55,580 nucleotides of DNA from a virus (Duplodnaviria; Caudoviricetes): the IMG/VR virus record IMGVR_UViG_3300036884_000126, positions 1 to 55,580 of that record; one strand, 5' to 3'. The position numbers and the translations under genes were made by a program. Below, piece by piece: positions 19,417-52,620 of the stretch (positions are counted from its first letter, which is position 1; every line of letters begins with the position of its first letter). The notes under the pieces were generated by a model, which had not been told where the DNA came from, did not search any database, and saw only the letters and a program-made list of their open reading frames with translations.

Positions 19417-19615
19417 GCCGGCCTTTCCTTACCTTTACGTCTGGAAGAAGAAGTTCATGCGGACGCTCGACCGGAAGGGGCAGCGCTGCCGGATCCTCTC
19501 GCGGGGAAGGATGAACAGCATACAGGTGGAATTTCAGACGGATGGCTTTCGGGCCATCGTGAGCAGCAACGCGCTGCGGAGGGCAAAACCTAATGGGTGC
19601 AAAAACGGGCATTGA
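19397..19615 (+). CDS. Hypothetical phage protein
   Basis: RKGQRCRIL.RG.MNS..VEF..DG....S.NALR motif. Confidence 0.6.
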   Translation: MKSSRSRPAFPYLYVWKKKFMRTLDRKGQRCRILSRGRMNSIQVEFQTDGFRAIVSSNALRRAKPNGCKNGH

Positions 19616-21023
19616 ATGGACGGACGCGACGTGGAATCCGGTGACGGGCTGTACCAAGGTGAGCGCCGGGTGTAAGTTCTGCTATGCAGAGCGCGATTTC
19701 CACCGGCCATATCCTGAGAGGGACTTCTCGGATGTGCGCTGTCATCCCGACCGGCTCTCCTGGCCACTCCGATGGCGCGGCTCGAAACAGGCGAAAGCTG
19801 AAGGCCGGAGATCCCGCATCTTCGTCAACTCGATGAGCGACCTGTTCCATGAAAGCGTCCCATTTGAATTCATTGATAAAGTTTGCGGAATGACCCACGC
19901 CTGCGCTCAACACACGTTTCAGATACTCACCAAGCGCCCTATCAGGATGGTGGAATATGATTACTGGAGAGCCGCAAACAATCCACATGCCCCGGCGTGG
20001 CCGTCCAACGTCTGGCTTGGCGTCTCGGTCGAAGACCAGAAGACTGCCGATGAGCGGATACCGCTACTGATCCAGACGCCAGCGGCGGTGCGATTTGTGA
20101 GCTATGAACCCGCGCTGGGGCCGGTGGATTTCTCCCCGTATTTTAGATATGATCCAGTCCATGGAAACAAAACACAACGAAGAGTTTGTTTATCAGGCAG
20201 TGAAGTCGGGCGACCTCCAAATTATGGACGATGGGACAGTCTGGAGGATTCGGAAGCGCGGGTGGGATCGCTGGAAGAAATGCGTTGTGAGCCGATTATG
20301 CAAGCCGGTGAGAGCCGAACACGACTGCGGGGAATACCTTCAGGTCCGCGTGATGATCGACGGGAAGAGGGTTTATTGCTTGGCGGCACGGCTGATATGG
20401 CTTCATTTCAACGGAGCAATTCCCGGCATTCTCACTGTGAATCACAAGGACGGGAAAAAGAAAAGAAACCGCTTGAACAATCTGGAACTGGCGACCAACT
20501 CCGAGCAACAGAAACATGCCGTGAGAATCTTGAAGGTCGGACATGCCTGCGATCAGAACGGCCCCAAGAATTCAATGGCAAGATTGACCATCAAGCAAGT
20601 ACGCGAGATACGGAGTCGCCGAGAGCAAGGGGAGAAACTGGTGACGATAGCGCAGGATTACGGGATCAGATTTCAAGAGGTATCAAGAATAGCCCGTGGG
20701 GATCGGTGGGGCTCAATCTCATAATCGCCGGCGGAGAGTCCGGGCCGCACGCGAGGCCCGCACACCCCGATTGGTTTCGCGCTATTCGCGACCAGTGCCA
20801 GGCGGCGGGAGTGCCGTTTTTCTTCAAACAGTGGGGTGAGTGGCTTCCAGCCGATAAACACATGCAAGGGATGTGGCCGGAAAAAAAGAACGGCAGGCCA
20901 ATTACAAGAGAGTGGTGGCCGTCGGTCAACTGGGGTTCAGGATTGATTTCGTACCGAGTCAGTAAGCAGCGTGCGGGCCGACTGCTCGATGGCAGGGAGT
21001 GGAACGAGTTTCCGGAGGGGTGA
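19593..21023 (+). CDS. DUF5131 / phage Gp37-Gp68 family protein (radical-SAM-like) with a ~190-aa internal insertion
   Basis: IEWTDATWNPVTGCTKVSAGCKFCYAE, IFVNSMSDLFH, FQILTKRP, NVWLGVSVEDQ, RFVSYEPALGPVD ...insert... IIAGGESG, PFFFKQWGEW, GRLLDGREWNEFP. Confidence 0.92.
   Translation: MGAKTGIEWTDATWNPVTGCTKVSAGCKFCYAERDFHRPYPERDFSDVRCHPDRLSWPLRWRGSKQAKAEGRRSRIFVNSMSDLFHESVPFEFIDKVCGMTHACAQHTFQILTKRPIRMVEYDYWRAANNPHAPAWPSNVWLGVSVEDQKTADERIPLLIQTPAAVRFVSYEPALGPVDFSPYFRYDPVHGNKTQRRVCLSGSEVGRPPNYGRWDSLEDSEARVGSLEEMRCEPIMQAGESRTRLRGIPSGPRDDRREEGLLLGGTADMASFQRSNSRHSHCESQGREKEKKPLEQSGTGDQLRATETCRENLEGRTCLRSERPQEFNGKIDHQASTRDTESPRARGETGDDSAGLRDQISRGIKNSPWGSVGLNLIIAGGESGPHARPAHPDWFRAIRDQCQAAGVPFFFKQWGEWLPADKHMQGMWPEKKNGRPITREWWPSVNWGSGLISYRVSKQRAGRLLDGREWNEFPEG
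20161..20724 (+). CDS. HNH homing endonuclease overprinted in the +1 frame inside the DUF5131 gene
   Basis: YLQV...ARLIWLHFNGAIP..LTVNHKDG.K.RNRLNNLELATNSEQQKH; C-terminal G.KN.MARLT..QVREIR...HTH; frame open from 20104. Confidence 0.88.
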   Translation: METKHNEEFVYQAVKSGDLQIMDDGTVWRIRKRGWDRWKKCVVSRLCKPVRAEHDCGEYLQVRVMIDGKRVYCLAARLIWLHFNGAIPGILTVNHKDGKKKRNRLNNLELATNSEQQKHAVRILKVGHACDQNGPKNSMARLTIKQVREIRSRREQGEKLVTIAQDYGIRFQEVSRIARGDRWGSIS

Positions 21024-21214
21024 TGAAAAACCGAGAGACGTACAGTACGGGGGCGGGAATCATTTGCATGATGATCGGGGCCTTGATCATTGCAGCAACC
21101 GGGCATCATATCAGCGGGCCTGGGGATGTTGGCCTGGGGGTCACAATCGGCGGAATGGTAATGAGCCTGGGCGCTGGTATCGTGATTGGGGCCCAGGTAT
21201 CCAGAAGGGAATGA
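21023..21214 (+). CDS. Small membrane protein
   Basis: Two hydrophobic segments; GGAGG SD. Confidence 0.55.
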   Translation: MKNRETYSTGAGIICMMIGALIIAATGHHISGPGDVGLGVTIGGMVMSLGAGIVIGAQVSRRE

Positions 21215-21220
21215 TGAAAC

Positions 21221-21568
21221 ATGGTCAATGATTTTCGAACCTTCACAGCCTGGGCCTTGGGCGTGCTTTCGGCGCTTCTGGTCATGACGTTGCTTGATGC
21301 GAACACGCTGCGCGGATGGGCGCTCGGCGTATATCTTGGTCTTCTGTTCGTCGGTCTGTTCGCCTCATTTTGGCGAATCTGCGGAAAAGCCTGCGTCGAG
21401 ATCATACAGTTCATCGAAGGCGGCATCGACGCTGGGCGGATCCGCAACACAATCAATAACGCCATGCCGATGAACAGGCTTATAATCCAGCCCGGAGAGC
21501 TGGAGGTCATGGGGGGCTTGAATGGGCGCAGGGAATTGCGTGAGGACCGCGATGGAGGAGTCCGTTAA
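21221..21568 (+). CDS. Membrane protein
   Basis: Two N-terminal TM segments. Confidence 0.55.
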   Translation: MVNDFRTFTAWALGVLSALLVMTLLDANTLRGWALGVYLGLLFVGLFASFWRICGKACVEIIQFIEGGIDAGRIRNTINNAMPMNRLIIQPGELEVMGGLNGRRELREDRDGGVR

Positions 21569-21621
21569 AGCGGACAAACCACAGGAAAAGATCTTGAGCA
21601 GCATAAAAAGGAGATCCGGTC

Positions 21622-22470
21622 ATGAAAGCGAAGAAGAGTCCCGACAAGAAGATGACGAAAGCCGCCGCGATGAAAGCGGCCGCCGAAGAAGTGAACGCAC
21701 GCGTCGCGAAGAAGGCCGCACGCAAACCGAATGCGCCCAAAGCCAAGAAACGCGAAGAAGTGGTGGCCATGGCCAGTACGGAAGTGGTCGCCTCTGTAGC
21801 TGCCGTAGCGAACCCACAGACAGCGCTCGCGAAGAAGGAACCAACCGGCCTATTCCACTACGATGCGGCCTGTCGCGAAATTGAACTGGCAAAGACGATG
21901 GATGAGGCGAAAGGCTTTTCAAATAAAGCCGAAGCCATCCGAGTGTATGCGCGGCTGATGGACGATCGGAAGCTGGAAATCGATGCCATAGAAGTTCGCG
22001 GACGCGCAGAGCGGAAGTGGGCCGAGCTGCATGAGGAAGTGAAGGCGAAGGGCGGAGAGCAATATCACGAAGAGGGCACTGGTGCAAAAAAGGAACCAGT
22101 GCTCACCCTAGAAGAGCTGGGCGTGGACAAGAAAGAGAGCGCCGAAGCTCATAAACTCGCCGCGTTGCCGAAAGAAGAGTTCGAGCAGAAGGTTGCAGTC
22201 TGGCGCGAGATCGAAGAGAAGGGCGACGGACACGTCGGCAGACACATCTTAAACGCCGGAAAGAAGAAGCAGGGGCGGCAGCAACGAGAGCGGGCACCAG
22301 CGCCATTCGATGAAGAGAGCCAGCTTGGGCAACTTGCCCATGCATTCCGAAAGGCGGTTGAAAATCTGTGGCCAAAAGAGAGGGATTTAACGCCAGTCAT
22401 CGGTCAGCTGCGCCGTTATGCTGATTACCTTGAAAGCGTGCAGTTGAAAGGGGTGCCCAATGGACAATGA
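21622..22470 (+). CDS. Helical phage protein resembling the N-terminal domain of the methylase at 9332
   Basis: AAAGGAG SD; K/A-rich N-terminus; RAERKWAEL...ELGVDKKESAEAHKLAALP. Confidence 0.65.
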   Translation: MKAKKSPDKKMTKAAAMKAAAEEVNARVAKKAARKPNAPKAKKREEVVAMASTEVVASVAAVANPQTALAKKEPTGLFHYDAACREIELAKTMDEAKGFSNKAEAIRVYARLMDDRKLEIDAIEVRGRAERKWAELHEEVKAKGGEQYHEEGTGAKKEPVLTLEELGVDKKESAEAHKLAALPKEEFEQKVAVWREIEEKGDGHVGRHILNAGKKKQGRQQRERAPAPFDEESQLGQLAHAFRKAVENLWPKERDLTPVIGQLRRYADYLESVQLKGVPNGQ

Positions 22471-23875
22471 AACGGACATGATTTGTCTTGCTCCCAAGGC
22501 GCACATCCTGTACAGCATCGCAGCGCAGAGACTTTCATGGTGGCAAATCTTGTGCGAAGGTATCGACAATTCCTTGGATGCGGGAGCGACGTGGGTTCGG
22601 GTCACTGTACGGGGCAAACGAAGTCTTTCAATTGCTGACGATGGAAGCGGCTGCCAAAACCTCCATGACATGGTGCAGCTCGGGGCAACCACGCGCCACA
22701 AAACGACAAAGCTCGGCCGATACGGCATAGGTCTCAAAGATTTGGCGCTCGTTGCCGGCGGGGCAGATTCGACCTTTCAAGCGAAGACGACTGTTGGTTC
22801 ACTCTTCAGTCAGCTTGAAATAAAGTGGAGTGAATTCGCAAGCAGAGGGTGGATTTTGCCTCGCATAGATCCAGTTAAGACGGAGTCGGTTATGAGCGGC
22901 ACAACGGTGACGATCATTCCACTCCTGAGAAAGTTTCCGGAAGGCAAAGACCTCACAGACTTGATGGATCAAATCGGTTATCTTTTCTCGGCGGCGATTA
23001 AGGCTGGAAAGCAAATCACAGTACAGATAGACAGGGATCCGCCGATCATCGTGCAGCGATGGAAGATGCCGCCGTTGAAACAGTCAGAGCCGATGGTCGA
23101 TCAAGAGATAGAGGTGGGTGGGCAAAAAGCGAGGGTCTATTGTGGAATCGTCGAAGACGGCGCTCCCAATCGCCGCTGTGGACTGACTTATCTCTATGGG
23201 TTCAGGGTCATAATTCCGGCAGGGTCTAGCGGTTGCGGCAACTATAGTCCGGCGCGTATCTGCGGCTTCGTTGAGCTTGATGATTCATGGCCGCTCACAA
23301 AAAATAAGGACTCGATCATCGCGGCGGAGGCACTCTTTGCTGCGGTCGAGCAGGTCTGTCTTCCGGTTTTGAAGCGAGCCGAGGAAATAGGAGAGTTGAT
23401 CTGTTCGGCGGCGTTCGACCATGATGTTACCTGCTTGCTGCGGGGCAGTATGGACGTTAAGGATAATCAGAAAGCTCATCGGCCCGGCTCGGGCGACATA
23501 CGTGGGACAGCGGTTCCAACCGGTAAGGGAGAAGAGCACAAGCGAGCGCGTAAAACTCAGCCTGGGGGGAAGCTGCCACGGCATGACGCGAGCAGCTTCA
23601 GCGTGACACATGGTCATTTGGGAAACGGAACGATTGGACAAGTTAAGTATCCATACATTATTCTCAATTTAGACAACCCGTTTATTGCTCAGGCTCGCAA
23701 GGAAGACAACAAGACGGCAGCGGTACTTGCAGCCGCAACGCTGATCGGTGTCCAATGCTGCCTCGTTCCTAATAGCCAGATGAAGTTGAAATTCTCGGTT
23801 GGAGAACAACCAGAAGACATTTCACGCGCTGTAGGGGAAATTCTGAGCGGAACGATTATAGCCGAGACGGAATGA
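22460..23875 (+). CDS. GHKL (HATPase_c, MORC/Hsp90-like) ATPase
   Basis: EGIDNSLDAGA (N box), IADDGSG (G1), GRYGIGLK (G2), GTTV. Confidence 0.85.
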   Translation: MDNETDMICLAPKAHILYSIAAQRLSWWQILCEGIDNSLDAGATWVRVTVRGKRSLSIADDGSGCQNLHDMVQLGATTRHKTTKLGRYGIGLKDLALVAGGADSTFQAKTTVGSLFSQLEIKWSEFASRGWILPRIDPVKTESVMSGTTVTIIPLLRKFPEGKDLTDLMDQIGYLFSAAIKAGKQITVQIDRDPPIIVQRWKMPPLKQSEPMVDQEIEVGGQKARVYCGIVEDGAPNRRCGLTYLYGFRVIIPAGSSGCGNYSPARICGFVELDDSWPLTKNKDSIIAAEALFAAVEQVCLPVLKRAEEIGELICSAAFDHDVTCLLRGSMDVKDNQKAHRPGSGDIRGTAVPTGKGEEHKRARKTQPGGKLPRHDASSFSVTHGHLGNGTIGQVKYPYIILNLDNPFIAQARKEDNKTAAVLAAATLIGVQCCLVPNSQMKLKFSVGEQPEDISRAVGEILSGTIIAETE

Positions 23876-23876
23876 G

Positions 23877-24101
23877 ATGCCGATGAGCCGTCACTACCGT
23901 GGCTATGACGCTCGGGATCACGGCAAAAGCCTGGAATCATCCGCAAGGCAGCGGGAAGTAAGGGAGCATCGGGATAGCCGGCAGCGCAACTTTGTGTGTC
24001 CCGGATGTTCTCAGGTTTTTAAGAACGATTTGGATTTCAAGGTGCATTGGAAAGAGGCGCATATCCGGAAAAGCCCGGACAGTAGCCAAAACCCCCTATG
24101 A
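23877..24101 (+). CDS. Small protein with a C2H2 zinc finger
   Basis: FVCPGCSQVFKNDLDFKVHWKEAH. Confidence 0.55.
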   Translation: MPMSRHYRGYDARDHGKSLESSARQREVREHRDSRQRNFVCPGCSQVFKNDLDFKVHWKEAHIRKSPDSSQNPL

Positions 24102-24820: not shown

Positions 24821-24941
24821 GCTGAAGAAGGCAAAACAACCCGCAAGGAAACCGGCGCGCATCAAGCGCCTTGCCGATCCGTCGGCGTCCGACGCGCGGG
24901 ATGTAGGGCCGCTGGGAGGCAGCCTACATAGGGCGCAACTC

Positions 24942-27281
24942 ATGCGCTCGCCTGTGGCCGAGGTTTGCGAGAACGTCGCCCGCATCCTCCAGCCCGGCAA
25001 GCTGGGCGGTGGCATCAACCTGAAGGAGCCGGCGTTCGAAAAGCAGCGGCAGTTCATCGAAGCTACAAACAAGCGTGTCATCGTACGGGCCGGTCGGCGG
25101 GGGGGGAAGACGATCGCGGCTTCAATTCGCGCGGTGCGTGCCTTCCTGTCGGGTCATCGCGTGTTGTATGCGGCGCCAGTCATCGAGCAGATCAACCGCT
25201 TCTGGACGGAAGTCTGCCGGGCGCTTCAGGAGCCGATTGACGCCGGCATCTACTACAAGAACGAAACCCGGCACATGATTGAGTTGAAGGGCACGGAGCA
25301 GGCGATTACCGGCAAGACCGCATGGGATGCTGATTCACTTCGCGGCGACTTCGGGGATCTATTGATCTTGGATGAGTGGCAGTTGATGAACGAAGATGCG
25401 TGGGGCCGGGTTGGGGCGCCGATGCTGCTAGACAACAATGGCGACGCGATGTTCATCTACACGCCGCCGTCGATTCATTCGCGATCGGTGACGAAGGCCG
25501 AAGACCCGCGCCACGCTTCGAAGATGTTCAAGCGGGCTGAGGAGCAAATGGCGGCCGCCGCAGCCGCGGGGAAGGAGAGCCGCTGGCTGGCCATCAGTTG
25601 GCCATCGGATGACAACCCCACGATCTCGGAAACTGCGCTCGCCGAGATCACGCAGGACATGACGGCCCTGTCGTACCGGCAGGAAATCATGGCCGAGGAC
25701 ACCACGGAAGTTCCGGGAGCGCTTTGGAGCCAAGCGTTGATCGACGGCACCCGGGTAGACAAGGCTCCCGCTCTCGTCCGCATCGTCGTGGGGATTGACC
25801 CGAGCGGCAGCTCGACGACCGAGGCGGGAATTGTTGCGGCCGGCATCGACGCCCAGGGGCACGGCTATGTGCTGCGTGACGCTTCACTGCTCGCACCTTC
25901 TCCCGAGCGGTGGGCGGCGGCCGGCATTGAGGCGTATGCAGCGCTGCGGGCGGACCGGATCGTGGCTGAGCGCAATTATGGCGGCGATATGGTCAAATCG
26001 ACGATTCACGCCGTCGATGAGAAAGTCTCTTACCATGATGTGGTCTCGACCCGGGGGAAGATGGTGCGTGCGGAGCCGATCTGCGCCTTCTATGAAAAGG
26101 GAATGATTCATCACGTCGGCGAATTCCCGGAGCTGGAAGACGAGATGTGTTTGTCTGCGGGGACATTGGTCGCGACACTCCGAGGAGATGTTCCAATAGA
26201 ACAAATCAAGACTGGAGATTTTGCTCTTACTCGTCGCGGATTTAGGCCGGTTCTTTGGACTGGATGCACTGGAAGCAAAAATACGCTGACGGTTCAGACA
26301 GTCATCGGGGATATAAGCTGTACCGGTTCTCATCCTCTTGCTATAATCCAGGAGAATTTGAGCTGGAAAAAAGCTCGAGATGCCCGGCCAGGAGATCGGA
26401 TCTTATGCCGCGGAAAGCTATCAGGGAGTGCGTCGAGTTTCGGGGAGAGAAATACTATCGGGCAAGCGATGGCTATTTCAAAACGTCCCATTCTCGCGGC
26501 TGTCGGCTCCTTCATCGCGATGTCTATGAGGCTCATTACGGAGCGATTCCGGCCGCCCATCACATCCATCATGGCGATTGGGATCGATCAAATAATGATC
26601 CCGCAAACCTATTCGCCAAGTCTACAAGGGAGCATAAGCGGATTCACGGACCAAGCGGTGCTTGGGTGGAGCCTCCTGCCGAAAAAAGCCCAAAGAGAAA
26701 AGAAGAATGGAGCCGGAGAGCGCCGCATACGGAAGTTTGCCCTGAATGCAGACGACCATTCGAGACGCGGGGCAACAGGACCATCTTTTGTTCCAGAAAA
26801 TGTCGGGACATCCGTTATCACCGCGATCACCCCGAATGGTATCGCTGAACCTGTGTACAATCTACATGTTGCTGACTCTCCCGAGTTCTTCGCAAACGGA
26901 CTTCTAGTTCACAATTGCTCCTATGTGCCAGGTGCGAAGAGTCCCAATCGAATGGATGCGCTGGTCTTTGCGATGACGGACTTGATGCTTGAGAGCCAGG
27001 CGCTCGGCCTGATAGATTTCCTGAAGGATGGCGGAGCGCAAAAAGTGTTGGACACCATGAACAAGACGGCGCGGGCTACAACGCTTGTGAAGCCGATGAT
27101 CCCGGAGCAAGCACCGACCTGCCCGGAGTGCGGGGCCGTGACCGTGATTCGGGCGGCGGGCGGGAGTTTACACTGCAATCAATGCGGCATCACATGGGCA
27201 GACAAGCAGACGAAGCCCACGGACGGGCACGGCATGACGCGGGGGGAATACCTGATGAAGGCGGATGAGAGGCGCCGATGA
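24942..27281 (+). CDS. terL: Terminase large subunit with an intein and a C-terminal Zn ribbon
   Basis: Walker A AGRRGGKT; LRG...LILDE; YRQEIMAE; nuclease IVVGIDP, ERNYGG, SPNRMDALV. Confidence 0.93.
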   Translation: MRSPVAEVCENVARILQPGKLGGGINLKEPAFEKQRQFIEATNKRVIVRAGRRGGKTIAASIRAVRAFLSGHRVLYAAPVIEQINRFWTEVCRALQEPIDAGIYYKNETRHMIELKGTEQAITGKTAWDADSLRGDFGDLLILDEWQLMNEDAWGRVGAPMLLDNNGDAMFIYTPPSIHSRSVTKAEDPRHASKMFKRAEEQMAAAAAAGKESRWLAISWPSDDNPTISETALAEITQDMTALSYRQEIMAEDTTEVPGALWSQALIDGTRVDKAPALVRIVVGIDPSGSSTTEAGIVAAGIDAQGHGYVLRDASLLAPSPERWAAAGIEAYAALRADRIVAERNYGGDMVKSTIHAVDEKVSYHDVVSTRGKMVRAEPICAFYEKGMIHHVGEFPELEDEMCLSAGTLVATLRGDVPIEQIKTGDFALTRRGFRPVLWTGCTGSKNTLTVQTVIGDISCTGSHPLAIIQENLSWKKARDARPGDRILCRGKLSGSASSFGERNTIGQAMAISKRPILAAVGSFIAMSMRLITERFRPPITSIMAIGIDQIMIPQTYSPSLQGSISGFTDQAVLGWSLLPKKAQREKKNGAGERRIRKFALNADDHSRRGATGPSFVPENVGTSVITAITPNGIAEPVYNLHVADSPEFFANGLLVHNCSYVPGAKSPNRMDALVFAMTDLMLESQALGLIDFLKDGGAQKVLDTMNKTARATTLVKPMIPEQAPTCPECGAVTVIRAAGGSLHCNQCGITWADKQTKPTDGHGMTRGEYLMKADERRR
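26339..26394 (+). promoter_or_regulatory. Extended -10 promoter and SD for the intein-nested HNH gene
   Basis: TGcTATAAT at 26339-26347; AGGAG at 26390-26394, 10 nt before ATG 26405. Confidence 0.6.
26405..26848 (+). CDS. HNH homing endonuclease overprinted in an alternative frame inside the terminase intein
   Basis: GYF...LLHRDVYEAHYGAIPAAHHIHHGDWDRSNNDPANL....REHKRIH plus C-terminal CPEC...FCSRKC Zn finger. Confidence 0.9.
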   Translation: MPRKAIRECVEFRGEKYYRASDGYFKTSHSRGCRLLHRDVYEAHYGAIPAAHHIHHGDWDRSNNDPANLFAKSTREHKRIHGPSGAWVEPPAEKSPKRKEEWSRRAPHTEVCPECRRPFETRGNRTIFCSRKCRDIRYHRDHPEWYR

Positions 27282-27557
27282 GCGAGCCGACGCAATGGGT
27301 CTGGGTTGTCAGGTATGAAAACTACGATCCGGCTGAAGTCGATTCGATTTGGACGACTGAAGCTGGCGCGAAGACACGGCAAGCTGAATTGGATGGAGAC
27401 TGGCGAGTTGAACAATGGGAGCTAAAGGTATGAATCGGCGATCCTTTCTGGAAGCCTTTATGATGGGCGTGGCGGGGCTTCTGCGCAAATCGGGGTATTT
27501 CACCGTACGCCGGAGCTCGTTTGCGGTTCTTAGTACTATCCGGGCAAGGAGGAAGCG

Positions 27558-28420: not shown

Positions 28421-28492
28421 GAAGGCTGACTGATTCCGTTCTCGGCCCTTTCCCAGGGACAGAACGCTGGAGTGCTGAAGCGCAGGACCAAT

Positions 28493-28533
28493 AGGCCCGC
28501 TCGGCTGCAAGGCTGGGCGGGCCTTTTGGTTTT
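28493..28533 (+). terminator. Intrinsic terminator-like hairpin immediately before the portal start
   Basis: AGGCCCGCTCGGCT-GCAA-GGCTGGGCGGGCCT followed by TTTGGTTTT. Confidence 0.65.
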
Positions 28534-28534
28534 G

Positions 28535-31500
28535 ATGGCCAACAGTACCTCGCTCGCAATTCGACCGCTCGGCCAGCTCGTAGCATCACTATCCCGCTAC
28601 GGCCAACAACTCTATCAACCTCCGAAAGATACGATCCGCGGCGTCGAGCCCGATACGTGGTATTCCCCCCTGCAACCCGTCAAGCCGATTGGGCCGCCTG
28701 GTATCGAGCCGCGCGGCTTTCAGTATTATGCAGGGCAAAACCTGTTCTGGACTCCTCGCGCGGACGCGGAGTATTGCCTGTCACCAGAGACGCGTGTATT
28801 AAAGGCTGACCTGTCTTGGATCGCCGTTTCCGAGTTACGCGTTGGAGACGCGCTAGTTGGATTTGAAGAAGAGAGTACTGGTGGTCATCCCAGGAGTTAT
28901 AAAAAATCCATCGTTACATCCATAGGTATCGCTAATCTTCCATGTCACGATTTGATATTCGAGGATGGCTCAAGGGTGCGCGCATCGGATAAGCACTTGT
29001 GGCTGGCTAAAAGACAACAGGCTTCCAAGTTGGAGTGGATCGCCACAAAGGATCTTAGTCCGGTCAAGAAAAATGACAGTTTTATACGCGTGCTTAAGCC
29101 CTTGGAACCTTGGCGATTTGATGACAGTAGGGATGCCGGATACTTGGCTGCCGCTTTTGACGGAGAAGGGCATCTGCGAAAAAACATTCGCATGGGATTC
29201 GCTCAGAAATCGAATGCCATGCTGAACGCCGTGATTGGATTTCTAGGAGATAGGAATTTCAATTCCACTGTCAAGCGGCGATCCCTGTGGGACGTGACCG
29301 AACTCGAAATCCTTGGAAGAGAAGAAGTTCTTCGGTTTTTGGGTTCCATTCGGCCCTTGCGCCTTTTGAGCAAATTCGATCCCGACAACCTCGGCGAATT
29401 GCGTTCAAGAAACAGCGTAGCGATACGGTTGAAGACTCCTGTTGGCAATCAACGGGTAATTACGATTGGAACAAGCACCAAAACATTAATTGCGGAAGGG
29501 TTCGCTTCACACAATTCAGCCGCGGACCTCAAGCAACTGGCGACATATCCCCTCGCCCGCATCGCCATCGAGAACGTCAAGGATTCGATGTGCATGGCGA
29601 ACTGGAAAATTCAACCCAAGCCGGCGCCCGGAGAGAGCCCTAAGGCGGCGATGAAGCGAGGGATTGGCGACAAGAACCTGGTGAAGCTCAACCGATTGTT
29701 CGAGATGCCCGACCGCGAGCATACCTGGCCGGAATGGTTGCGTCCGCTTTTGGAAGATATGCTGGTGATCGACGCCTGGACGATTCTCATCCGCAAGACG
29801 TTCTCGGGAGAGGTTGTGGAGTTGCCGGTCCTCCGGGGTGATAGCATCGTCCGTTACATCGACGAGAACGGGTGGACGCCGATGGCGCCCGAGCCGGCCT
29901 ACGCGCAACTCTGGTGGGGTCTCCCTCTCGTCAACCTTTCCACCGATCAGCTTATTTACAAGCCCCGCAACATCGTCCCGCGCAACACGATCTCCTCCCA
30001 ACTCTACGGCATGAGCCCGACCGAAGAGCTTGCTCGAGAGATCCAGATTGGCATGAAGCGGCTGGAGTTCACGCTGGCCTATTATACGGAAGGTTCAATC
30101 CCCGGCGTCGTGCAAGTCGTGCCGAAAGGCATCCCCGTGGAGAAGATCGCCGAGGCCATGCAGTGGATGAACTCTGAGCTTGCCGGGAATCTGGCGAAGC
30201 GGCGCCAGTGGCAACTTATCCAGGGATGGAAGGATGATGGCAAGGATGAGCAGATCATCTTCTCGAAGGAGCAATTACTGGCCGACCCCTTCGATGAACT
30301 GCATATCCGCAAGGTCGCCTACGGCTACGGGATCTCTCCGCAGCGCCTGGCTCGCCAGATGAATCGAGCTTCAGCCGAAGCATCCCAGGAAGCCTCTGAG
30401 GTTGAGGGGTTGATGCCCTACTTCTCCTCGCTCAAAAGCCTCATCGACTTCATCGTCCAGCGCAAGATGGGCTATGCCGACTACGAGATGATGTTGGAGC
30501 CGCTGGTTGAGCCAGATCAAGTTAAGCAATCCCAGGTGCTTACGGCCTACGTCAAGGAGGCCATCATCACCCGGGAAGAGGCGCGCGAGAAGCTTGGTGA
30601 GGAGCCATCGGGAGTGCCTGAAGCTGGCCAGCTAATGGTGACAACCGGGCAGGGCGCGGTGCCCCTGGGCGCGACCACGCAGCCGGCCGCCAAGCCGGGA
30701 GAGGAAGGAGCAGCCGATGGAATTCCTGATAAAGGAAAGGGTGGAGCGGGAGCATCGGGAAGCGATGAAGAGCTTGACGCCGATGGAAACCTCGTCGTTG
30801 CTGACGGTCGCGGCAAGCCCCGCAAGCCTGCCAGCACCAACAAGCCCAACGGGGGCGCGGCGGCGAAAGCGAAAACGCAGAACCGGCCTATTGGGTTCGC
30901 GGCTGGAACCGTGATCGTCGAGCTGGAACCTCCGCAGTATGGAGTTCTTGAAATTCACGAGGAGGCCCTGGTTAAGGCAAAGCCACGGGCGAAGGATCCG
31001 CCCGTCATCCATCCGGGCCGGATGGCGCCGGCGTCGATCCTTGGAAAACACAAGCTGGAGCGAGACCTCACGAAAATCTTCCGCACCATGCACCGGAAGA
31101 CGACAAAAGTCATGGCTGCGGCCCTGGGCCTTGCGCACGGGCATTTGGCAAAGGCCGAGCCGGACGCCGATATGACCCTGCGGCAGGCCATGGACAGTCT
31201 TGCCGCCGAGTGGGAAACGATTGCCCGGTTGGCAAGGAAGCCCCTCACGGATGCAGCCCTGGCAGGTGCTTCCAAGGGCAGTCTCGAACTGGAGATTTCA
31301 GCCGAGGACATGCTGACCGGCATCAATGAGACGGCGCGTGACTGGGCTTCAAACCGGGCGGCCGAGTTGGTGGGGATGCTGCGCACGCCCGAGGGCGAGC
31401 TCATCGCGAACCCGAACGCGAAATGGGCCATCAGCGACACGACGCGCGAAAAGCTGCGCTCCGTTATTGCGGACGTGTTCGGGCAAGAGGGCAAGATCAC

Positions 31501-31795
31501 GCTACGCGACGTGGAGAACCGGATCGAGCAATCGGGAGTTTTCTCAGACGTGAGGGCTTCGACGATCGCACGAAACGAGATTGCCCGGGCGCAGACTCAG
31601 GGGAACTTGATGTCCTGGCAGGAATCAGGGCTGGTGCAGAAGGTCGCATGGAAAACATCGGACGATCACGACCAAAGCGATATTTGCGATGAGCTGGAGA
31701 AAGACGGTCCGTACGACGTCGACGACGTGCCGGACCTGCCGGCCCACCCGAACTGCTTGTGCGCCCTGATTTTAACGGAGGCTGAGGAGCAATAA
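28535..31795 (+). CDS. Portal protein fused to a Mu gpF-like head morphogenesis domain, with an intein
   Basis: LEDMLVIDA, YGMSPTE, ITREEAREKLG portal features; C-terminal RASTIARNE...W....D..C...PAHPNCLC. Confidence 0.88.
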   Translation: MANSTSLAIRPLGQLVASLSRYGQQLYQPPKDTIRGVEPDTWYSPLQPVKPIGPPGIEPRGFQYYAGQNLFWTPRADAEYCLSPETRVLKADLSWIAVSELRVGDALVGFEEESTGGHPRSYKKSIVTSIGIANLPCHDLIFEDGSRVRASDKHLWLAKRQQASKLEWIATKDLSPVKKNDSFIRVLKPLEPWRFDDSRDAGYLAAAFDGEGHLRKNIRMGFAQKSNAMLNAVIGFLGDRNFNSTVKRRSLWDVTELEILGREEVLRFLGSIRPLRLLSKFDPDNLGELRSRNSVAIRLKTPVGNQRVITIGTSTKTLIAEGFASHNSAADLKQLATYPLARIAIENVKDSMCMANWKIQPKPAPGESPKAAMKRGIGDKNLVKLNRLFEMPDREHTWPEWLRPLLEDMLVIDAWTILIRKTFSGEVVELPVLRGDSIVRYIDENGWTPMAPEPAYAQLWWGLPLVNLSTDQLIYKPRNIVPRNTISSQLYGMSPTEELAREIQIGMKRLEFTLAYYTEGSIPGVVQVVPKGIPVEKIAEAMQWMNSELAGNLAKRRQWQLIQGWKDDGKDEQIIFSKEQLLADPFDELHIRKVAYGYGISPQRLARQMNRASAEASQEASEVEGLMPYFSSLKSLIDFIVQRKMGYADYEMMLEPLVEPDQVKQSQVLTAYVKEAIITREEAREKLGEEPSGVPEAGQLMVTTGQGAVPLGATTQPAAKPGEEGAADGIPDKGKGGAGASGSDEELDADGNLVVADGRGKPRKPASTNKPNGGAAAKAKTQNRPIGFAAGTVIVELEPPQYGVLEIHEEALVKAKPRAKDPPVIHPGRMAPASILGKHKLERDLTKIFRTMHRKTTKVMAAALGLAHGHLAKAEPDADMTLRQAMDSLAAEWETIARLARKPLTDAALAGASKGSLELEISAEDMLTGINETARDWASNRAAELVGMLRTPEGELIANPNAKWAISDTTREKLRSVIADVFGQEGKITLRDVENRIEQSGVFSDVRASTIARNEIARAQTQGNLMSWQESGLVQKVAWKTSDDHDQSDICDELEKDGPYDVDDVPDLPAHPNCLCALILTEAEEQ
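28775..29515 (+). mobile_element. Intein (247 aa) in the portal with an in-frame LAGLIDADG motif
   Basis: AEY|CLSPETRVL, ASDKHLWL, YLAAAFDGEG, TLIAEGFASHN|S. Confidence 0.92.
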
Positions 31796-46111: not shown

Positions 46112-46156
46112 GATCAAGGACCGGACCCGGCCCCGGTACAAGGAGAGAGGTAAAAT

Positions 46157-46912: not shown

Positions 46913-46985
46913 ATCACCCATCGACGCACGGAACGGGGGACGGCGGCGGGTGCACCTACCGCCGTCCTGCGGGGAAGAAGGGAAT

Positions 46986-47632: not shown

Positions 47633-47661
47633 CCTGGCTATCCTGTTGCCGCCACCTAGAT

Positions 47662-47694
47662 GGGAGAGTTAGGGAGAGTTAGGGAGAGTTGGGG
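47662..47694 (+). repeat. 10-nt tandem repeat (GGGAGAGTTA)x3 with G-quadruplex potential
   Basis: GGGagagttaGGGagagttaGGGagagttGGGG. Confidence 0.85.
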
Positions 47695-47703
47695 ATTCTC
47701 TGT

Positions 47704-50064
47704 ATGGCAACAGATGTTCTTGAAGTCGGGGCAGTCATCAACCTGGCGCAAATCCTGCCCGGCTTGGACACTCTTGCTGCGAAGACGGAAGGCACCTGCG
47801 CGCAGATGACCATGTCGTTTGCCGGACCAGCACAGGCATCCCTGGCGTTTGGCAGGGGCTTCGCGCTTTCCGTTCCGGAAATCGTTAAGATCCCGCCCGC
47901 CGTCGACACCATCCCTCCAGCTATGGCCCGTGCGGGCTCCTCTGCCATGCAGGCGCGCATGGCCATGATGGGGATGGGGCAGGAGATGGGCGTGGCGCTG
48001 CCGCGCTTCGTGCGCTCTTTCCTGACGAGCGTCGGACCCGTGGCCGGGATCATGGCGGCTGCGTTCCTCCCCGTCGCCATCATTGGAGTGGTCGAGTGGC
48101 TTGCCAAAATTCCCGCCGCGATCGGCAAGGCATCCGACGCGATCATGGGCTTTGGCAAGGCACAGAAGGAAGCCTTCGCGGAAGCGGTCAAAGGGTCAGC
48201 CGAGGCATTCGAGCACGCGAAGACCTTGGAGCAGGCCACCTTTGCCCTCGCGCAGTCCGTGGCCACCCTGGGCATCCTGGCGCGCCAGACCTTTTCAGAG
48301 CGGCTCGTCCAGGGATTCAAAGACTCGGCTGAGGCAACATCAGACTGGTGGGGTCCGCTCAAGGGAGTGTTGGAGACGGTCAGCGCACTGAGAGCAGCTT
48401 TCGGCCTGTCTTCCGATGCGGCCACGAAGGCGAGCACGGCGCAGATCGCCCAGCTCACCACGCAAGCGGAGCTGCAACGGAAGGCTCATGAAGGCGCCTA
48501 CAAGCAGCAGGAAGCGGAAATCCAACTTCAGATGATCGGCGCCAAGGGCGCGGAATTAACGCGGCTTCAAACCCAGCTGCTGCGGATCAAGCAAAACGCC
48601 GACGAATACGCCCTGAGCAGCGAGGGCAAGCTCACGGAGCGGCAGATTGCTCTGCTCAATGAAAAGTACCGCGTCGAGCGGGAAGGGGTGGGAAAGAAGG
48701 CGGAGCTGAAAGGAGAAGGGGAAGCGGGAGCGCTGGCCAAGGCCGAGGTTGACGCTCACAAGAGCGTGGCCGATGCCATCATCGCGCAGCAGCTTGCCCT
48801 GGCCCGGGAAGCCGTCGAGATTGACAAGGGCAAGTGGCCGCAGATGATCGCCGCCGAGCGCGCGGCCGAGGATGAGATGTATGTGGTTGCCGTCAATGCA
48901 CTTAACCGCAAGAAGGAAATCGCGGCGCAAGAGGCGGCGCTGCATGGCAAGAGCGGGGCAGCGGAAGCGGCGACGATCAACGGTGAGATCGAAGCGCTGG
49001 CCATAAAGCATCAAACCAAGCTGGACTCGATCAGCGCGGAAGGAACCAAGCACCTGATTGCGGATGGCAATGCGGTGGAGGCCGCGTTCCGTGCGCAGTT
49101 CGAAGCCCAAGGCAAGGCACGCGAGATGGCAGCGGCAGATGCGAAGCGCGGCGACGAAGAGAGCATGCGGGCGGACGAGGAGCGAGTTTCTTTCGCCGAG
49201 ATGATCGCCAGCCGCACGCTGCGGGTGGAAGAAGGGGCAAACAGCGAGCGCCTGCGCGCGCATCAGGAGAACTTGAAGACGTGGGCCGCAGATGAAACCG
49301 CCTCGATCAACAAGTGGTACGCCGAGCAGCACAGGTTGCTGGAACTGGAATTGGCGGACGCAGAGCGGATCTATGGGGTGGGAACCACGGATTACATGCG
49401 CGTGGTGGCGCGCATGGAAGCGCTCGACCAGGACCGCGCCGCGAAGTCTCAAAAGGTGAACGCCCAGGTTGAGCAAAACTTCGTCAAAACGTACAGCATG
49501 ATCACGGGCATCGTGAATCACAATATTGCGTCCTGGATCACCGGGCATGAGACTTTCGGCAGGATGGTGATCAGCATCGCGGATGAGATGGCGACCGCCC
49601 TGATCAACTACTTCTTGAAAGAGGCGGAGCAATACCTCTTGGGCTTCATCACAAAGAAGTTCTTCGCTGAGGCTAACGTGAGCATCGATGCGGGCAGGGC
49701 AGGGGCGGGGGCTTTTGCTTCGGTCATGGAATCCGTTCCATTTCCGTTGAACATGGCTCTTGCGCCAGCGATGGCCACTGTGGCCATGACGCAGACGATG
49801 GCATACGGGAGCTTCGACACCGGAGGGTTGGCGCAGAAGACCGGGCTCGCCATGATCCACCAGGGCGAGATTGCCATGCCTGCGGAAGTCTCCTCGGCCT
49901 TCCGGTCGATGGCGGCGGGCGGTCCTGTCGGCGGGGGGCGCACCGTTCACCATCACACGACGTTCAACCTCCACCACAACGGGCCGGACGCGAAGGAAGT
50001 CCTCGAAACGCAACTGGTTCCGATGATCCGGCAGGCGCAGCGGCGCGGGGAGCTGGGCGCATGA
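47704..50064 (+). CDS. Tape measure protein
   Basis: Long Ala-rich helical protein; C-terminal FDTGG...AMIHQGE..MP. Confidence 0.88.
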   Translation: MATDVLEVGAVINLAQILPGLDTLAAKTEGTCAQMTMSFAGPAQASLAFGRGFALSVPEIVKIPPAVDTIPPAMARAGSSAMQARMAMMGMGQEMGVALPRFVRSFLTSVGPVAGIMAAAFLPVAIIGVVEWLAKIPAAIGKASDAIMGFGKAQKEAFAEAVKGSAEAFEHAKTLEQATFALAQSVATLGILARQTFSERLVQGFKDSAEATSDWWGPLKGVLETVSALRAAFGLSSDAATKASTAQIAQLTTQAELQRKAHEGAYKQQEAEIQLQMIGAKGAELTRLQTQLLRIKQNADEYALSSEGKLTERQIALLNEKYRVEREGVGKKAELKGEGEAGALAKAEVDAHKSVADAIIAQQLALAREAVEIDKGKWPQMIAAERAAEDEMYVVAVNALNRKKEIAAQEAALHGKSGAAEAATINGEIEALAIKHQTKLDSISAEGTKHLIADGNAVEAAFRAQFEAQGKAREMAAADAKRGDEESMRADEERVSFAEMIASRTLRVEEGANSERLRAHQENLKTWAADETASINKWYAEQHRLLELELADAERIYGVGTTDYMRVVARMEALDQDRAAKSQKVNAQVEQNFVKTYSMITGIVNHNIASWITGHETFGRMVISIADEMATALINYFLKEAEQYLLGFITKKFFAEANVSIDAGRAGAGAFASVMESVPFPLNMALAPAMATVAMTQTMAYGSFDTGGLAQKTGLAMIHQGEIAMPAEVSSAFRSMAAGGPVGGGRTVHHHTTFNLHHNGPDAKEVLETQLVPMIRQAQRRGELGA

Positions 50065-51002
50065 GTCTACAAGTCTATCCGGGGAGTTCGGCCTCAAGCG
50101 CGATCCGCGGCTTGGCTTTCACGGTGATCAAGCGGCCGCTATTCAACACCATCGTGCAGGACGCGCCGAACTTCTACTGTACCCGCATCGCGCAGACCCG
50201 CAACCCATTCTGGCGGTGGACGCTGAACTACGAGGTACTATATAACGACCCTGGCAACATCGCGAACGGCAACGCGCCCTGGACGGACTTGCAAGCTCTC
50301 ATGGGCTTTTTCATGGACAAGTACGGCCAGCAGGCGCCCTTCCTGTTTGATGACCCGGATGACGACTCGGTTGGGCCTGGCATCACGACGGCGGGCTGGA
50401 AAGCAAGCACCTATTATCCGGTGGACGCGAGCCTGCTCGTCGCGACGCACTGGCAGAAGGCGACCGTAGCCGGAATCTCCGGCAGCAGCGCTCCCGCATT
50501 CTCGACCTCCGGGGGGCATGTGTCAGAAGGCCCCAGCTCTCCGCAATTGCGCTGGGACGACCAGGGCTCGGGCTTCTCGGCGGTGCCGAACCTGTTCGCG
50601 GAGCTTCCGCTGGTCATGGACACGTCAACGGGCCTGTACTATTCACCCCTGCAAAGAAACCTGGGCGGCTTCGCGGAGGACGTTACCGACCTGAACGGCG
50701 CGGTCACACTTTACGGCAACGGCGCCGTGCTCACGGGGTACTATGCCGGAACGCTATCGACGGTCCCGGGCCTCGCCATCCCGGGAGCCTCCTACATGGG
50801 GCAGTACATCGCATGGACTGCAAGCTATGTGCCGACCGCGCCCGTCACCGCCTCATTCAAATTCTATTTCCGTGTGCGCTTCGAGACTGACGCCATCGAC
50901 TTTGAGAAGTTCGTGAGCGACATGTGGACCGTGGGCGGGTCGGAAGGGAAGGGTGGCGCCGGAGCCATCACGCTCGTCTCCGACCGTCCTCCAACCGTCT
51001 GA
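50061..51002 (+). CDS. Distal tail protein (DUF2460-like)
   Basis: GLAF.V.KRP.F.T, W.W.L.YE.L, L.GFF...GQ..PFLF.DP.D, F.FYFRVRF..D. Confidence 0.75.
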   Translation: MSLQVYPGSSASSAIRGLAFTVIKRPLFNTIVQDAPNFYCTRIAQTRNPFWRWTLNYEVLYNDPGNIANGNAPWTDLQALMGFFMDKYGQQAPFLFDDPDDDSVGPGITTAGWKASTYYPVDASLLVATHWQKATVAGISGSSAPAFSTSGGHVSEGPSSPQLRWDDQGSGFSAVPNLFAELPLVMDTSTGLYYSPLQRNLGGFAEDVTDLNGAVTLYGNGAVLTGYYAGTLSTVPGLAIPGASYMGQYIAWTASYVPTAPVTASFKFYFRVRFETDAIDFEKFVSDMWTVGGSEGKGGAGAITLVSDRPPTV

Positions 51003-51988
51003 TGCGCAAAGTTCTCTCTGGCAATGGAACGGACACGACCGCCACGGTTCTTGCGGCGCTCAAGGCCAGCAACCAGCTCTGGCAGGCCGATCTCTACCTC
51101 ATCGGCGAGGCAGATGATCCACAAGCGCTCTGGCTCTCGAACTGGGAATCGCCGCTCCTCTGGTCCTTGTGGGGAACGTTCCTGCCGGCTGTCGTCAAGC
51201 GCGGCTCGGTCGCGAGCGACGTTGGCCTGGATTCGAAACAACTTGATGTTTCCTGGGCGCCCGCAAACCAAACCTTCACGTCCTCGATTCCCACCACCAG
51301 CCCTTACGAACTGGCCCGCCTGGGATTCTATGACAACCGGCGCTTCCGCCTGTGGCGCTGCCTCATGCCCATACCTGGGGATGCGAACACCTGGGGAGCC
51401 TATGAGCTGTTCGGCGGCGTGATCGGCACGACGCAGCCCACGCGCGGCGAGATCAAGTTCAGCGTCCAGAGCTATCTCTATGTGCTCGATCAGAAAGTGC
51501 CGCAGGGCGTGATCGAGGTGACGAATTCGATGGCCGGCTACATCGGGGGGACGCCGCCCGCGGGCTTCTCGTCGATCCCGGAGTTCATCGTCGCCGATGC
51601 CAGCACGGCCACCGTCGTCAACGCCGACTGCACGAGCACGCCGACACACATCTTCACAGACGATGTTTTTGACGGTGGTTACATCGTCTTCGCCGGCGAC
51701 TCTACCCTGGCCGGGCTCTTCAGCGTCGTCGCCAAGAACTCAAGCTACACGAGCGGTGGACATCAATACAACAGCTTCCAAATCTATTCTCCGCTCCCCT
51801 GGGTTCCGACGATCGGAGACACGTTCTATGTGAGCGCACAGAGCCCGATTGACCAGGTGGACGGGGACTTCTACGGATTCCCAAGCGTACCTGCACCAGA
51901 ATCGGCCCTCGCTTGGATCGTTGGCCTCGGGCTGAGTGAAATACTCTTACACGCACTGCTTGGATTCGGGCGGATAATGGGCACATGA
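51002..51988 (+). CDS. Tail hub/baseplate protein (DUF2163-like)
   Basis: Position between distal tail and NlpC/P60; terminal FYGFP.VP.PE motif followed by a short extension. Confidence 0.7.
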   Translation: MRKVLSGNGTDTTATVLAALKASNQLWQADLYLIGEADDPQALWLSNWESPLLWSLWGTFLPAVVKRGSVASDVGLDSKQLDVSWAPANQTFTSSIPTTSPYELARLGFYDNRRFRLWRCLMPIPGDANTWGAYELFGGVIGTTQPTRGEIKFSVQSYLYVLDQKVPQGVIEVTNSMAGYIGGTPPAGFSSIPEFIVADASTATVVNADCTSTPTHIFTDDVFDGGYIVFAGDSTLAGLFSVVAKNSSYTSGGHQYNSFQIYSPLPWVPTIGDTFYVSAQSPIDQVDGDFYGFPSVPAPESALAWIVGLGLSEILLHALLGFGRIMGT

Positions 51989-52620
51989 AAAACAAACCCT
52001 GGTTCATCTACGTGCTCAAAGAACCGGAGAATGGAGAAGTTCGCTATGTTGGCTATACGATCAATCTCCATCAACGATTTCTTGACCACTTCAAGCCCTC
52101 GCGTTTTCTTCACGGAACGCGCCGCGATAGGTGGCTCAAGCGGCTGATGATTCTCGGTCGAAAGCCCATCCTCGAAATCTTAGAGATCGGTGAGGGTCTG
52201 GATTGGGCAAATGCTGAGCGAAAGTGGATAAAACATTTTAGAATGGTCGGAGCCAGATTGACAAACCATACAAACGGGGGGGAAGGCATTCCTGGCAGGC
52301 GGCATTCCAAGGAGACCCGCAGAAAGCAACGGGAATCTATAACTGAAGTATGGTCCTGCCGTTCCGCTGACGAGCGAAAGAAAATCGGATTGAAGATTTC
52401 ACGTGCCTTGCTCGCTCAGCATGAAATGCTCTCACGCCGGGCAAATGGAAACTGTCAGAAAGCTAGAAAACGTGACCCTGGATATCCAAGGCGTGCCGTC
52501 ATGCAGTTCTGGGTAAAATTATCTTCAGATCCAGAAGCGCGCAAGGAATTCATCGAAAGGCGCCGCCAAGCAATCATAGTCAGTTGGGCCAAAAGGAAAG
52601 AAGCTCGAAGGATTTCATGA
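51985..52620 (+). CDS. Free-standing GIY-YIG homing endonuclease
   Basis: FIYVL.EP....RYVG.T...R...H, E..WI, LTN.T.GGEG, HSKETRRK (NUMOD3-like); lower GC than flanks. Confidence 0.87.
   Translation: MKNKPWFIYVLKEPENGEVRYVGYTINLHQRFLDHFKPSRFLHGTRRDRWLKRLMILGRKPILEILEIGEGLDWANAERKWIKHFRMVGARLTNHTNGGEGIPGRRHSKETRRKQRESITEVWSCRSADERKKIGLKISRALLAQHEMLSRRANGNCQKARKRDPGYPRRAVMQFWVKLSSDPEARKEFIERRRQAIIVSWAKRKEARRIS

Follow-up and report, generated by a model that had tools for sequence, protein, structure and literature searches.

Four homing-type endonuclease genes lodged in four different ways in one phage genome, two of them nested out of frame within other genes

The window analysed here, i.e. 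the whole of IMG/VR record IMGVR_UViG_3300036884_000126 (55,580 bp, linear, metagenome-derived, with an estimated completeness of 56%), is a phage genome that contains four homing-type endonuclease genes, each lodged differently, with two of them lying in a shifted frame inside other genes. On the + strand, which holds nearly all long open reading frames (ORFs) of the window (G+C content ~52-66%), these are an HNH gene nested in a gene of the DUF5131 family (HNH1, 20161-20724), a second HNH gene nested in the intein of the large terminase subunit (HNH2, 26405-26848), a LAGLIDADG domain carried in frame by an intein in a portal gene (28775-29515), and a free-standing GIY-YIG gene (51985-52620). 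These four arrangements, first proposed in a preliminary description made by reading the letters, are borne out by profile matches (HNH_3 twice, LAGLIDADG_3 and GIY-YIG) together with sequence reading; domain identities throughout are from Pfam and PHROG profile matches, and RNA elements from Rfam. For every one of the four elements a precise empty site is present in close relatives (L001/L002 for HNH1, G001/L184-L188 for the terminase intein, G001 for the portal intein and G002 for the GIY-YIG gene), G001 being the contig that carries locus L001. We are fairly confident that homing-type endonuclease genes entered the genome of this uncultivated phage on at least four separate occasions, each gene sparing its host in a different way. 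Each nuclease would cut the empty allele, the form seen in close relatives, and repair would then copy the nuclease gene in.

HNH1 lies within a host gene (19593-21023, +) encoding a 476-amino-acid (aa) protein of the DUF5131 (Gp37/Gp68) family, which resembles radical S-adenosylmethionine (SAM) enzymes (Pfam DUF5131, E 1.3e-87; PHROG 2045, E 6.8e-103). The DUF5131 match is split, with residues 4-181 corresponding to profile positions 1-173 and the remainder resuming far downstream, and between the two parts runs a read-through spacer, stop-free in the host frame, at approximately residues 184-374 (20142-20714, +). Alignment A4 places this insert between the EPxLGPVD and DWVIxGGESG motifs, in a loop that is naturally variable, so that the borders of the spacer are approximate. 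In frame +1 with respect to the host (19593 mod 3 = 0, 20161 mod 3 = 1), the ORF 20104-20724 contains HNH1, a 187-aa HNH_3 protein (HNH_3, E 5.9e-11; PHROG 59 'HNH endonuclease', E 8.7e-29) with a helix-turn-helix-like C-terminal tail. Alignment of its family (124 homologues of ~186-190 aa) indicates ATG 20161, which lies a few codons inside the insert, as the start; the stop codon, TAA 20722-20724, overlaps the host codons directly before GGESG, and all family-invariant residues are present.

Over HNH1 the host frame reads as Arg/Glu/Gly/Ser-rich sequence without a recognisable motif. Its openness was assessed by synonymous shuffling of the HNH codons, counting the stops that arise in the host frame (3000 shuffles for HNH1): ~7 stops are expected, none is present, and not one of the 3000 shuffles reached zero. 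Selection on the synonymous sites of HNH1 would hold the host frame free of stops. In an AlphaFold model of the 476-aa protein the exteins have pLDDT (predicted local distance difference test) values of 86-96, and between confident strands at residues 166-171 and 376-379 the insert comes out as coil at pLDDT 30-48, residues 195-357 lacking any secondary structure. A fold search with the DUF5131 model found nothing at E <= 0.001; the best hits were radical SAM enzymes and were weak (4fhg, E 2.7e-3), in agreement with the listing of DUF5131 within the radical SAM superfamily in a resource paper (PMC9477430). The N-terminus (19593-19700) contains three nearly invariant cysteines arranged as CX6CX2C (C20, C27, C30), as against the canonical radical SAM CX3CX2C. 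HNH1 would sit one base out of step in a variable surface loop of DUF5131, with no splicing element, and the DUF5131 protein is most likely synthesised in full length, including a disordered loop of ~190 residues.

A mature enzyme without the loop would result if some splicing element that escaped recognition, whether an intron of atypical type or a protein-splicing domain other than Hint, took the insert out, but this appears quite improbable. The DUF5131 gene is conserved and presumably needed, Rfam is limited to described intron families, with undescribed splicing elements outside its reach, and splicing of a comparable insert in a mycobacteriophage (ShiLan, discussed below) was likewise not fully excluded by Arsenault et al. 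(PMC11855218). However, the 476-aa ORF has no match to a Hint or intein family and no border pattern of the type C/S/T...HN followed by C/S/T, and the insert yielded no group I or II intron hit: Rfam gave no hits at gathering score over the whole window, and a search of 19900-21100 gave two at chance level (E > 2). An RNA intron, moreover, needs no open host frame, yet stops are absent from that frame in all 26 nested or borderline loci assembled below from viruses and about eight bacterial phyla; and the host-frame peptide is unconserved, so that it contains no conserved catalytic domain.

The empty allele of the DUF5131 gene is well represented close by. Upstream of 20107 the window is 96-98% identical to G001, whose DUF5131 gene (L001) is uninterrupted at 271 aa, as is that of L002 at 312 aa. 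Among contigs from other runs, X15 is the HNH-bearing allele with 0 differences, and X17 and X20 are the empty, L001-type allele. The segment 20108-21021 diverges from L001 as a block; we considered this as proof of co-conversion and rejected it, alignment A4 showing that the odd C-terminus belongs to L001. In 50,697 cultured-phage records no close DNA relative of the region was found, the matches being just DUF5131 fragments of 34-53 nucleotides (nt).

Nesting in DUF5131 genes recurs widely. Searches of viral contigs with HNH1 or HNH2 as single proteins gave no relative, and none of the 80 nearest DUF5131 loci holds the HNH1, HNH2 or GIY-YIG gene; a search with the HNH1 family alignment (A1) then succeeded, returning 80 loci, of which 46 were examined and the 30 weakest and four duplicates omitted. 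In 19 of these 46 (among them four copies of one sequence, and one partial locus) a same-strand ORF spans the whole HNH gene, always at an offset of +2 counted from the HNH frame. Seventeen of the spanning viral ORFs were scanned, and 15 match DUF5131 above the Pfam cut-off, the other two being L097 and L117. A bacterial search, with one genome per species and 12 of the 16 returned loci examined, gave nine nested loci, in all of which the spanning ORF is DUF5131 at the same offset. Two of the nine, L168 and L169, are in actinomycete genomes not labelled as metagenome-assembled genomes (MAGs), and the titles of the nested set name actinomycetes, Planctomycetota, an alphaproteobacterium, Desulfobacteraceae, a Bacillus MAG, Vicinamibacterales, Gemmatimonadota and Binatia, i.e. 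about eight phyla. Judged by profile positions and the motifs downstream, there are at least two insertion points within DUF5131, one before the GGESG strand, as in the window, and one before the WPLPNVWLG motif. Among cultured phages there are just distant, free-standing relatives of HNH1, with 23 records matching at E 1e-8 or better.

Host-frame stops are absent from all 17 viral loci (nested or borderline), for which 3-11 were expected and the probability of zero stops, P(0), is in each case <= 0.026, and from all nine nested bacterial loci (P(0) from <0.001 to 0.117), the expectation across the 26 loci together ranging from 1.9 to 11. Three free-standing HNH1 relatives have 8, 10 and 41 stops in the corresponding frame. 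The host frame is still open in L093 and L102, which have a stop in the HNH frame, and in L171, L173, L175 and L176, which have truncated HNH ORFs, this interrupted or truncated set keeping 122-138 aa. We conclude from the window and 25 further nested or borderline loci that lodging a nuclease gene within a host frame kept free of stops is an alternative both stable and widespread, found in one enzyme family in phages and in many bacterial phyla. The earlier suggestion that nesting is a recurrent strategy thus holds for 19 of the 46 viral loci and nine bacterial loci, to which the intein pair L225/L226 (see below) is added; further examples are readily found in large datasets, and they are not assembly errors.

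Several of these loci have features of their own. The six with interrupted or truncated HNH frames look like stages of decay toward a 'junk loop' without nuclease. In L097 (2341-3219; HNH 2504-3064) the spanning ORF is short and its DUF5131 match falls just below the cut-off, with the same PHROG; no stops interrupt the other frame, and the locus may represent a third insertion point in DUF5131, near the N-terminus after profile position ~50. In L117 (2095-4233) the spanning ORF is a P-loop terminase with an intein (QGGTN-C...VLVHN-SSKT, hyphens marking the borders), within which the ORF 2474-2986 encodes an HNH1-like HNH_3 protein (E 1.3e-11) in the other frame; against an expectation of 5, the host frame contains no stops. 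A bare host loop and an intein both house relatives of one HNH family.

The second nested gene of the window resides in such an intein, that of the large terminase subunit (TerL; 24942-27281, +), a 779-aa precursor, or 523 aa minus the intein, with matches to Terminase_6C, Hint_2 and Intein_splicing. Sequence reading delimits a class-1 intein of 256 aa (26148-26915, +), which starts with CLSAGT (Cys1), contains block B as CTGSHP (TGSH) and ends with LLVHN, followed by CSY (+1 Cys); Hint_2 scores 29.2 bits (cut-off 28.4) and Intein_splicing 31.6-34.4 bits, under its cut-off of 35.8. HNH2 (+ strand, 147 aa), starting at ATG 26405 and stopping at TGA 26848, occupies frame +2 with respect to the intein, and the 779-aa TerL frame is continuous across it. 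The protein matches HNH_3 (E 8.9e-13) and PHROG 15471 (E 5.3e-20), has a Cys-rich, zinc-ribbon-like C-terminal tail and keeps all invariant residues of its family. An exhaustive search gave 2240 relatives, the best being of ~150 aa, 43-50% identical and aligned from residue 1; among cultured phages there was no match at E 1e-8, and a word-index search was also empty. Genomic context for the HNH2 family was reached via TerL relatives and covers few of the 2240 matches. HNH2, shifted by two bases, would occupy the stretch that separates the N-terminal from the C-terminal splicing block, and protein splicing, which we infer because the motifs are intact and the terminase gene is essential, would remove the whole insert from the terminase.

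This intein is precisely absent from G001, in which the flanking coordinates 16222/16223 are adjacent and the protein junction is seamless. The five closest TerL relatives, L184-L188 (80-92% identity), are 521-523 aa long, without an intein and with identical junction residues; in L186-L188 the junction is EFPELEDEM followed directly by CSYVPGAKSPNRMDA, the same as in the exteins of the window. At 50% TerL identity, L225/L226 have an intein at the same residue; nested in it, again in frame +2, is a gene of the HNH2 family (HNH_3, E 2.3e-18), and the 691-aa frame is unbroken. Between the window and L225 the intein frame is conserved just in its first ~65 aa and last 22 aa. Two further observations concern this gene. 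At the DNA level the N-extein (24983-26149) is 75% identical to G001 and the C-extein (26916-27301) 90%, so that a mosaic border may lie at the intein site. In a related terminase clade (L260-L263), L260 (1366-3579), like L261 and L263, has a different in-frame insertion of ~280 aa at another TerL site (ADRIVAE-CVPID...ITGNS-NNGGEMV), with a LAGLIDADG-like motif (FIYGMLLGEG) and an unusual C-terminal border.

Comparison of reading frames indicates which of the two superimposed genes is under selection. In comparisons of the window with eight relatives, identity is 40-60% in the HNH frame, 23-28% in the host frame and 25-32% in the third, stop-ridden and non-coding frame; for the terminase intein pair the corresponding values are 28% for the HNH frame, 18% for the intein frame and 22% for the third frame. 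Since conservation of the host or intein frame does not exceed that of the non-coding one, this frame is a spacer selected just to lack stops. On this comparison the nuclease is the older gene, and the arrangement the result of insertion with read-through, not of de novo overprinting. The preliminary description had spoken of overprinting, and its nested out-of-frame genes are real, but with an old, conserved HNH frame and a host frame that is a mere spacer this is not overprinting in the strict sense. Its view that the two nested genes arose independently is supported by their different offsets, families and C-terminal parts, HNH1 and HNH2 being 27% identical over 45 core residues.

The remaining two endonucleases occupy more conventional positions. 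A portal/Mu-F-like fusion ORF (28472-31795, +; start codon uncertain), with matches to Phage_portal, Phage_Mu_F and LAGLIDADG_3, contains an intein of 247 aa, from Cys1 to HN with a +1 Ser (28775-29515, +; profile match and sequence reading), which carries its LAGLIDADG domain in frame, as the LAGLIDADG_3 match at residues 221-293 suggests (E 6.5e-5; 23.6 bits, cut-off 22.5). It is precisely absent from G001, in which the flanks are adjacent and the protein reads seamlessly (WTPRADAEY-SAADLKQ). By eye, a single LAGLIDADG motif (LAAAFDGEG) is present in a nuclease region of ~110 aa; one motif would imply a homodimeric or a degenerate endonuclease, which is unusual for an intein. The free-standing GIY-YIG gene (51985-52620, +; 211 aa) matches GIY-YIG (E 4.5e-8) and PHROG 314 'homing endonuclease' (E 4.4e-7). 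At its 5' end the ATG shares bases with the upstream gene's stop (ATGA), and at its 3' end the TGA does so with an ATG of the downstream gene, so that it would be translationally coupled to both of the genes between which it lies. The inserted segment comprises 720 nt (51902-52621, +) in place of 12 nt in G002, the flanks matching G002 at 88% and 81% identity and ending at its nearly adjacent positions 29102 and 29115.

These empty sites also bear on whether the nested HNH genes are past homing, either as relics or as genes recruited by the phage, e.g. as a packaging-associated HNH protein working with the terminase. We consider this unlikely, whilst recognising that terminase-assisting HNH proteins are known (PMC3592412), that several relatives have truncated or interrupted HNH frames and that homing activity is itself predicted from sequence. 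HNH1 and HNH2 nevertheless retain every family-invariant residue, relatives at 92-98% identity are without the elements and show exact borders, as would be expected of recent gain or loss but not of an essential role, and HNH1 relatives are found in DUF5131 genes of very different organisms.

Each of the three separately translated endonuclease genes had been noted in the preliminary description to have a -10-like hexamer just upstream. For HNH1 this is TATGAT (20148-20153, +), which ends 7 nt before the ATG and which comparison of the nested loci marks as a candidate internal promoter; for HNH2 it is TATAAT (26342-26347, +), 57 nt upstream of the ATG and three codons after block B; and for the GIY-YIG gene it is GATAAT (51973-51978, +), 6 nt before the ATG and within the inserted segment, a candidate identified by sequence. 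HNH2 has in addition a Shine-Dalgarno (SD)-like AGGAGA (26390-26395, +), 9 nt before its ATG and in the P-G-D codons of the intein; in L225 GGAGA lies 7 nt before the HNH ATG and TATACT, equivalent to the TATAAT of the window, follows SHP, a comparison of two sequences only. Among the 26 nested loci, 18 hexamer hits fall within 40 nt upstream of the HNH ATG, and seven of these hits, in seven loci drawn from both insertion-site groups, are a TAnnnT at exactly -13 (7-nt spacing); a GGAG-type SD is found 9-12 nt upstream in 10 other nested loci. The variable fourth base of the hexamer alters the host amino acid (D, T, Y or N) and the flanking T is kept, which fits a DNA signal better than a constraint on the protein. 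We tentatively suggest that HNH1 might be expressed from an internal -10 promoter giving a leaderless mRNA. HNH1 and HNH2 would each be translated on their own, HNH2 via an SD site written in the codons of the intein.

Independent translation of HNH1 may be compared with its production as a fusion to the N-terminal half of DUF5131 through programmed +1 ribosomal frameshifting. The HNH frame is indeed open for 57 nt upstream of ATG 20161, and this ATG is not preceded by a good SD. The homologues, however, start at a conserved Met without a conserved upstream extension, in many relatives the ATG is closely preceded by a stop in its own frame (L081, L089) or by a GGAG-type SD, and no slippery or shift-prone motif was seen, though no search aimed at one was made. 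We regard such a fusion as very improbable, and independent initiation at ATG 20161 as the preferred reading.

A number of points weigh against this account as a whole. The evidence base is DNA contigs, with no RNA run among those listed for the sequences, and nuclease activity, target sites, splicing and the read-through protein are all predicted; the observation itself is confirmed and the mechanism is largely inferred. The part of DUF5131 that diverges from L001 on the 3' side cannot be polarised. For HNH2, whose offset rarely makes stops, the stop test lacks significance, with P(0) at 0.85-1.0 for the window and at 0.19 for L225, and gives no support for selection; the case for this gene therefore rests on the intact intein motifs and the comparison with relatives. 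The AlphaFold model of the terminase intein, built from a two-sequence alignment, has a mean pLDDT of 30.6 and is uninformative. As to the start signals, the three hexamers exist but are unenriched, TATAAT-like hexamers numbering 119 in the window against 134 expected, and a two-hexamer sigma-70 scan found no + strand promoter before any of the three genes; the hexamer at -13 is limited to seven of the 26 nested loci, and these are related to one another.

That the nested layout is an artefact is hardly credible. On this explanation, assembly frameshifts would have split an in-frame HNH domain, or DUF5131 would be a dead pseudogene whose frame is open by chance, and the record is indeed metagenome-derived, with the incompleteness given above. 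However, the exact DUF5131 (476 aa), TerL (779 aa) and GIY-YIG proteins occur in a collection of 15 billion proteins from 16, 12 and 16 contigs, respectively, and the insert is covered, with 0 differences, by contigs of a run that does not carry the source flag. Both HNH ORFs have their own start and stop and align with homologues of free-standing size, the layout recurs in independent records, including the two bacterial genomes not labelled MAG, and the chance of an open host frame is below 1 in 3000.

In the same collection none of five start variants of the nested proteins (three of HNH1, two of HNH2) is present. The preliminary description held that gene callers miss such genes, and this is the case for this virus, in which both nested HNH genes are uncalled; it is not universal, as 124 HNH1 homologues have been called elsewhere and a GenBank record, that of Brucella phage Tb, annotates both a host gene and the gene nested in it. 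One of the called HNH1 homologues bears the source name 'ribosomal protein L24'.

Outside the span so far considered, a fifth nuclease gene (11771-12301, +) encodes a 176-aa classic HNH protein (PF01844, E 1.6e-9) directly upstream of a ParB-like gene. The ORF 11964-14132 overlaps it merely via an N-terminal extension that is probably spurious. Unlike the other four, this gene is kept in both close relatives, at 94-95% identity.

Both nested layouts were first described in 2025, and the window provides further examples of them. Arsenault, Gosselin and Gogarten (Genes 2025; PMC11855218) report out-of-frame, splicing-free HNH genes in mycobacteriophage DNA methylase genes (the ShiLan domain and the Pacc40 gp60 insertion), for which they propose leaderless initiation. 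According to that paper these share with HNH1 an insertion absent from close homologues, a stop-free host frame, no intein or intron signature, an HNH gene on the same strand in an alternate frame (theirs of ~160-195 aa) with its stop at the 3' edge of the insert, and a host-frame product predicted to be disordered or loop-like. The window differs in its host, a DUF5131 radical-SAM-like gene as against a methylase, and in the HNH1 start, an ATG with a -10-like hexamer at a fixed 7 nt or an SD, as against the GTG given for ShiLan (PMC11855218). HNH1 is also unrelated at the level tested, no Mycobacterium phage appearing in the organism tally of the 23 cultured-phage matches, and its lineage extends over viral contigs and the genomes of many bacterial phyla, with at least two insertion points.

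Gosselin, Arsenault and Gogarten (bioRxiv 10.1101/2025.01.02.630785) describe actinobacteriophage inteins with the nuclease in a separate frame and propose that inteins are invaded by free-standing endonuclease genes. The idea put forward in the preliminary description, that nesting is a route by which mini-inteins acquire endonucleases, fits our data and had thus already been proposed. The likeness extends to a TerL intein with intact splicing blocks and a nuclease ORF on the same strand in another frame, with nothing recognisable in frame (10.1101/2025.01.02.630785). As judged from the main text, without the supplementary tables, of that preprint, the case they report with a nuclease out of frame on the same strand is endonuclease VII-like, and the HNH domains of their inteins are read in frame; in the window Endonuclease_7 has no match anywhere, and the gene nested in the terminase intein is an HNH_3 gene with a Cys-rich tail in a metagenomic virus that is not an actinophage. 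An earlier parallel is given by the fractured genes of Dassa et al. (Nucleic Acids Research 2009; PMC2677866), in which split inteins are separated by a free-standing endonuclease gene. There too an endonuclease gene lies between intein halves and invasion of a mini-intein was proposed as the origin, but those genes are broken into two that trans-splice, whereas the intein frame of the window is continuous (PMC2677866).

Brucella phage Tb (NC_019446.1) also has a GenBank-annotated TerL intein with a same-strand HNH gene in another frame, its gp07 terminase (2347-4893) being marked 'intein present' and containing gp08, a 'putative HNH endonuclease' (3170-3856). That intein is at TerL residue 175, against 403 in the window, and its HNH protein is weakly similar with another domain order; kinship between the two inteins was rejected on account of the differing site and HNH. 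A literature search found no paper describing the Tb nested gene. Free-standing phage homing endonucleases of the GIY-YIG and HNH types, such as seg and mob of T4, are intergenic and present or absent between conserved neighbours. The GIY-YIG gene of the window resembles them in being present there and absent from G002 between conserved neighbours; it differs in being known from sequence, with a modest PHROG 314 match. The main texts of the Arsenault and Gosselin papers make no mention of DUF5131 or Gp37, a full-text literature search for DUF5131 returned the radical SAM resource paper alone, and a search on ShiLan with HNH found no follow-up paper. What is new here is DUF5131 as a host, the spread of the layout across phyla, the position-fixed -10-like hexamer, and all four lodgings side by side in one genome.

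A broader reading, which we offer as a possibility short of an expectation, is that the DUF5131-resident HNH gene represents an old, cross-phylum and splicing-free third lifestyle beside introns and inteins. It might be a portable cassette with its own start signal (a -10 element with a leaderless mRNA, or an SD), always shifted by a single base, so that the choice of synonymous codons would by itself keep the host frame open, and with its target in the DNA immediately upstream of DUF5131's most conserved motifs; the HNH gene in a terminase intein might then be a living intermediate, from which in-frame HNH inteins could arise by small indels.

To spare the host gene, a homing endonuclease gene is commonly assumed to require lodging in an intron, in an intein or between genes, and the arrangements described here bear on that view. 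Standard gene calling hides nested HNH genes, and metagenome counts of mobile nucleases and of 'mini-inteins' are therefore probably biased, whilst DUF5131 proteins with a junk loop of ~190 residues come to be annotated as single long proteins. Such proteins offer, as a natural experiment, a way to gauge the amount of disordered insertion that a radical-SAM barrel can tolerate.

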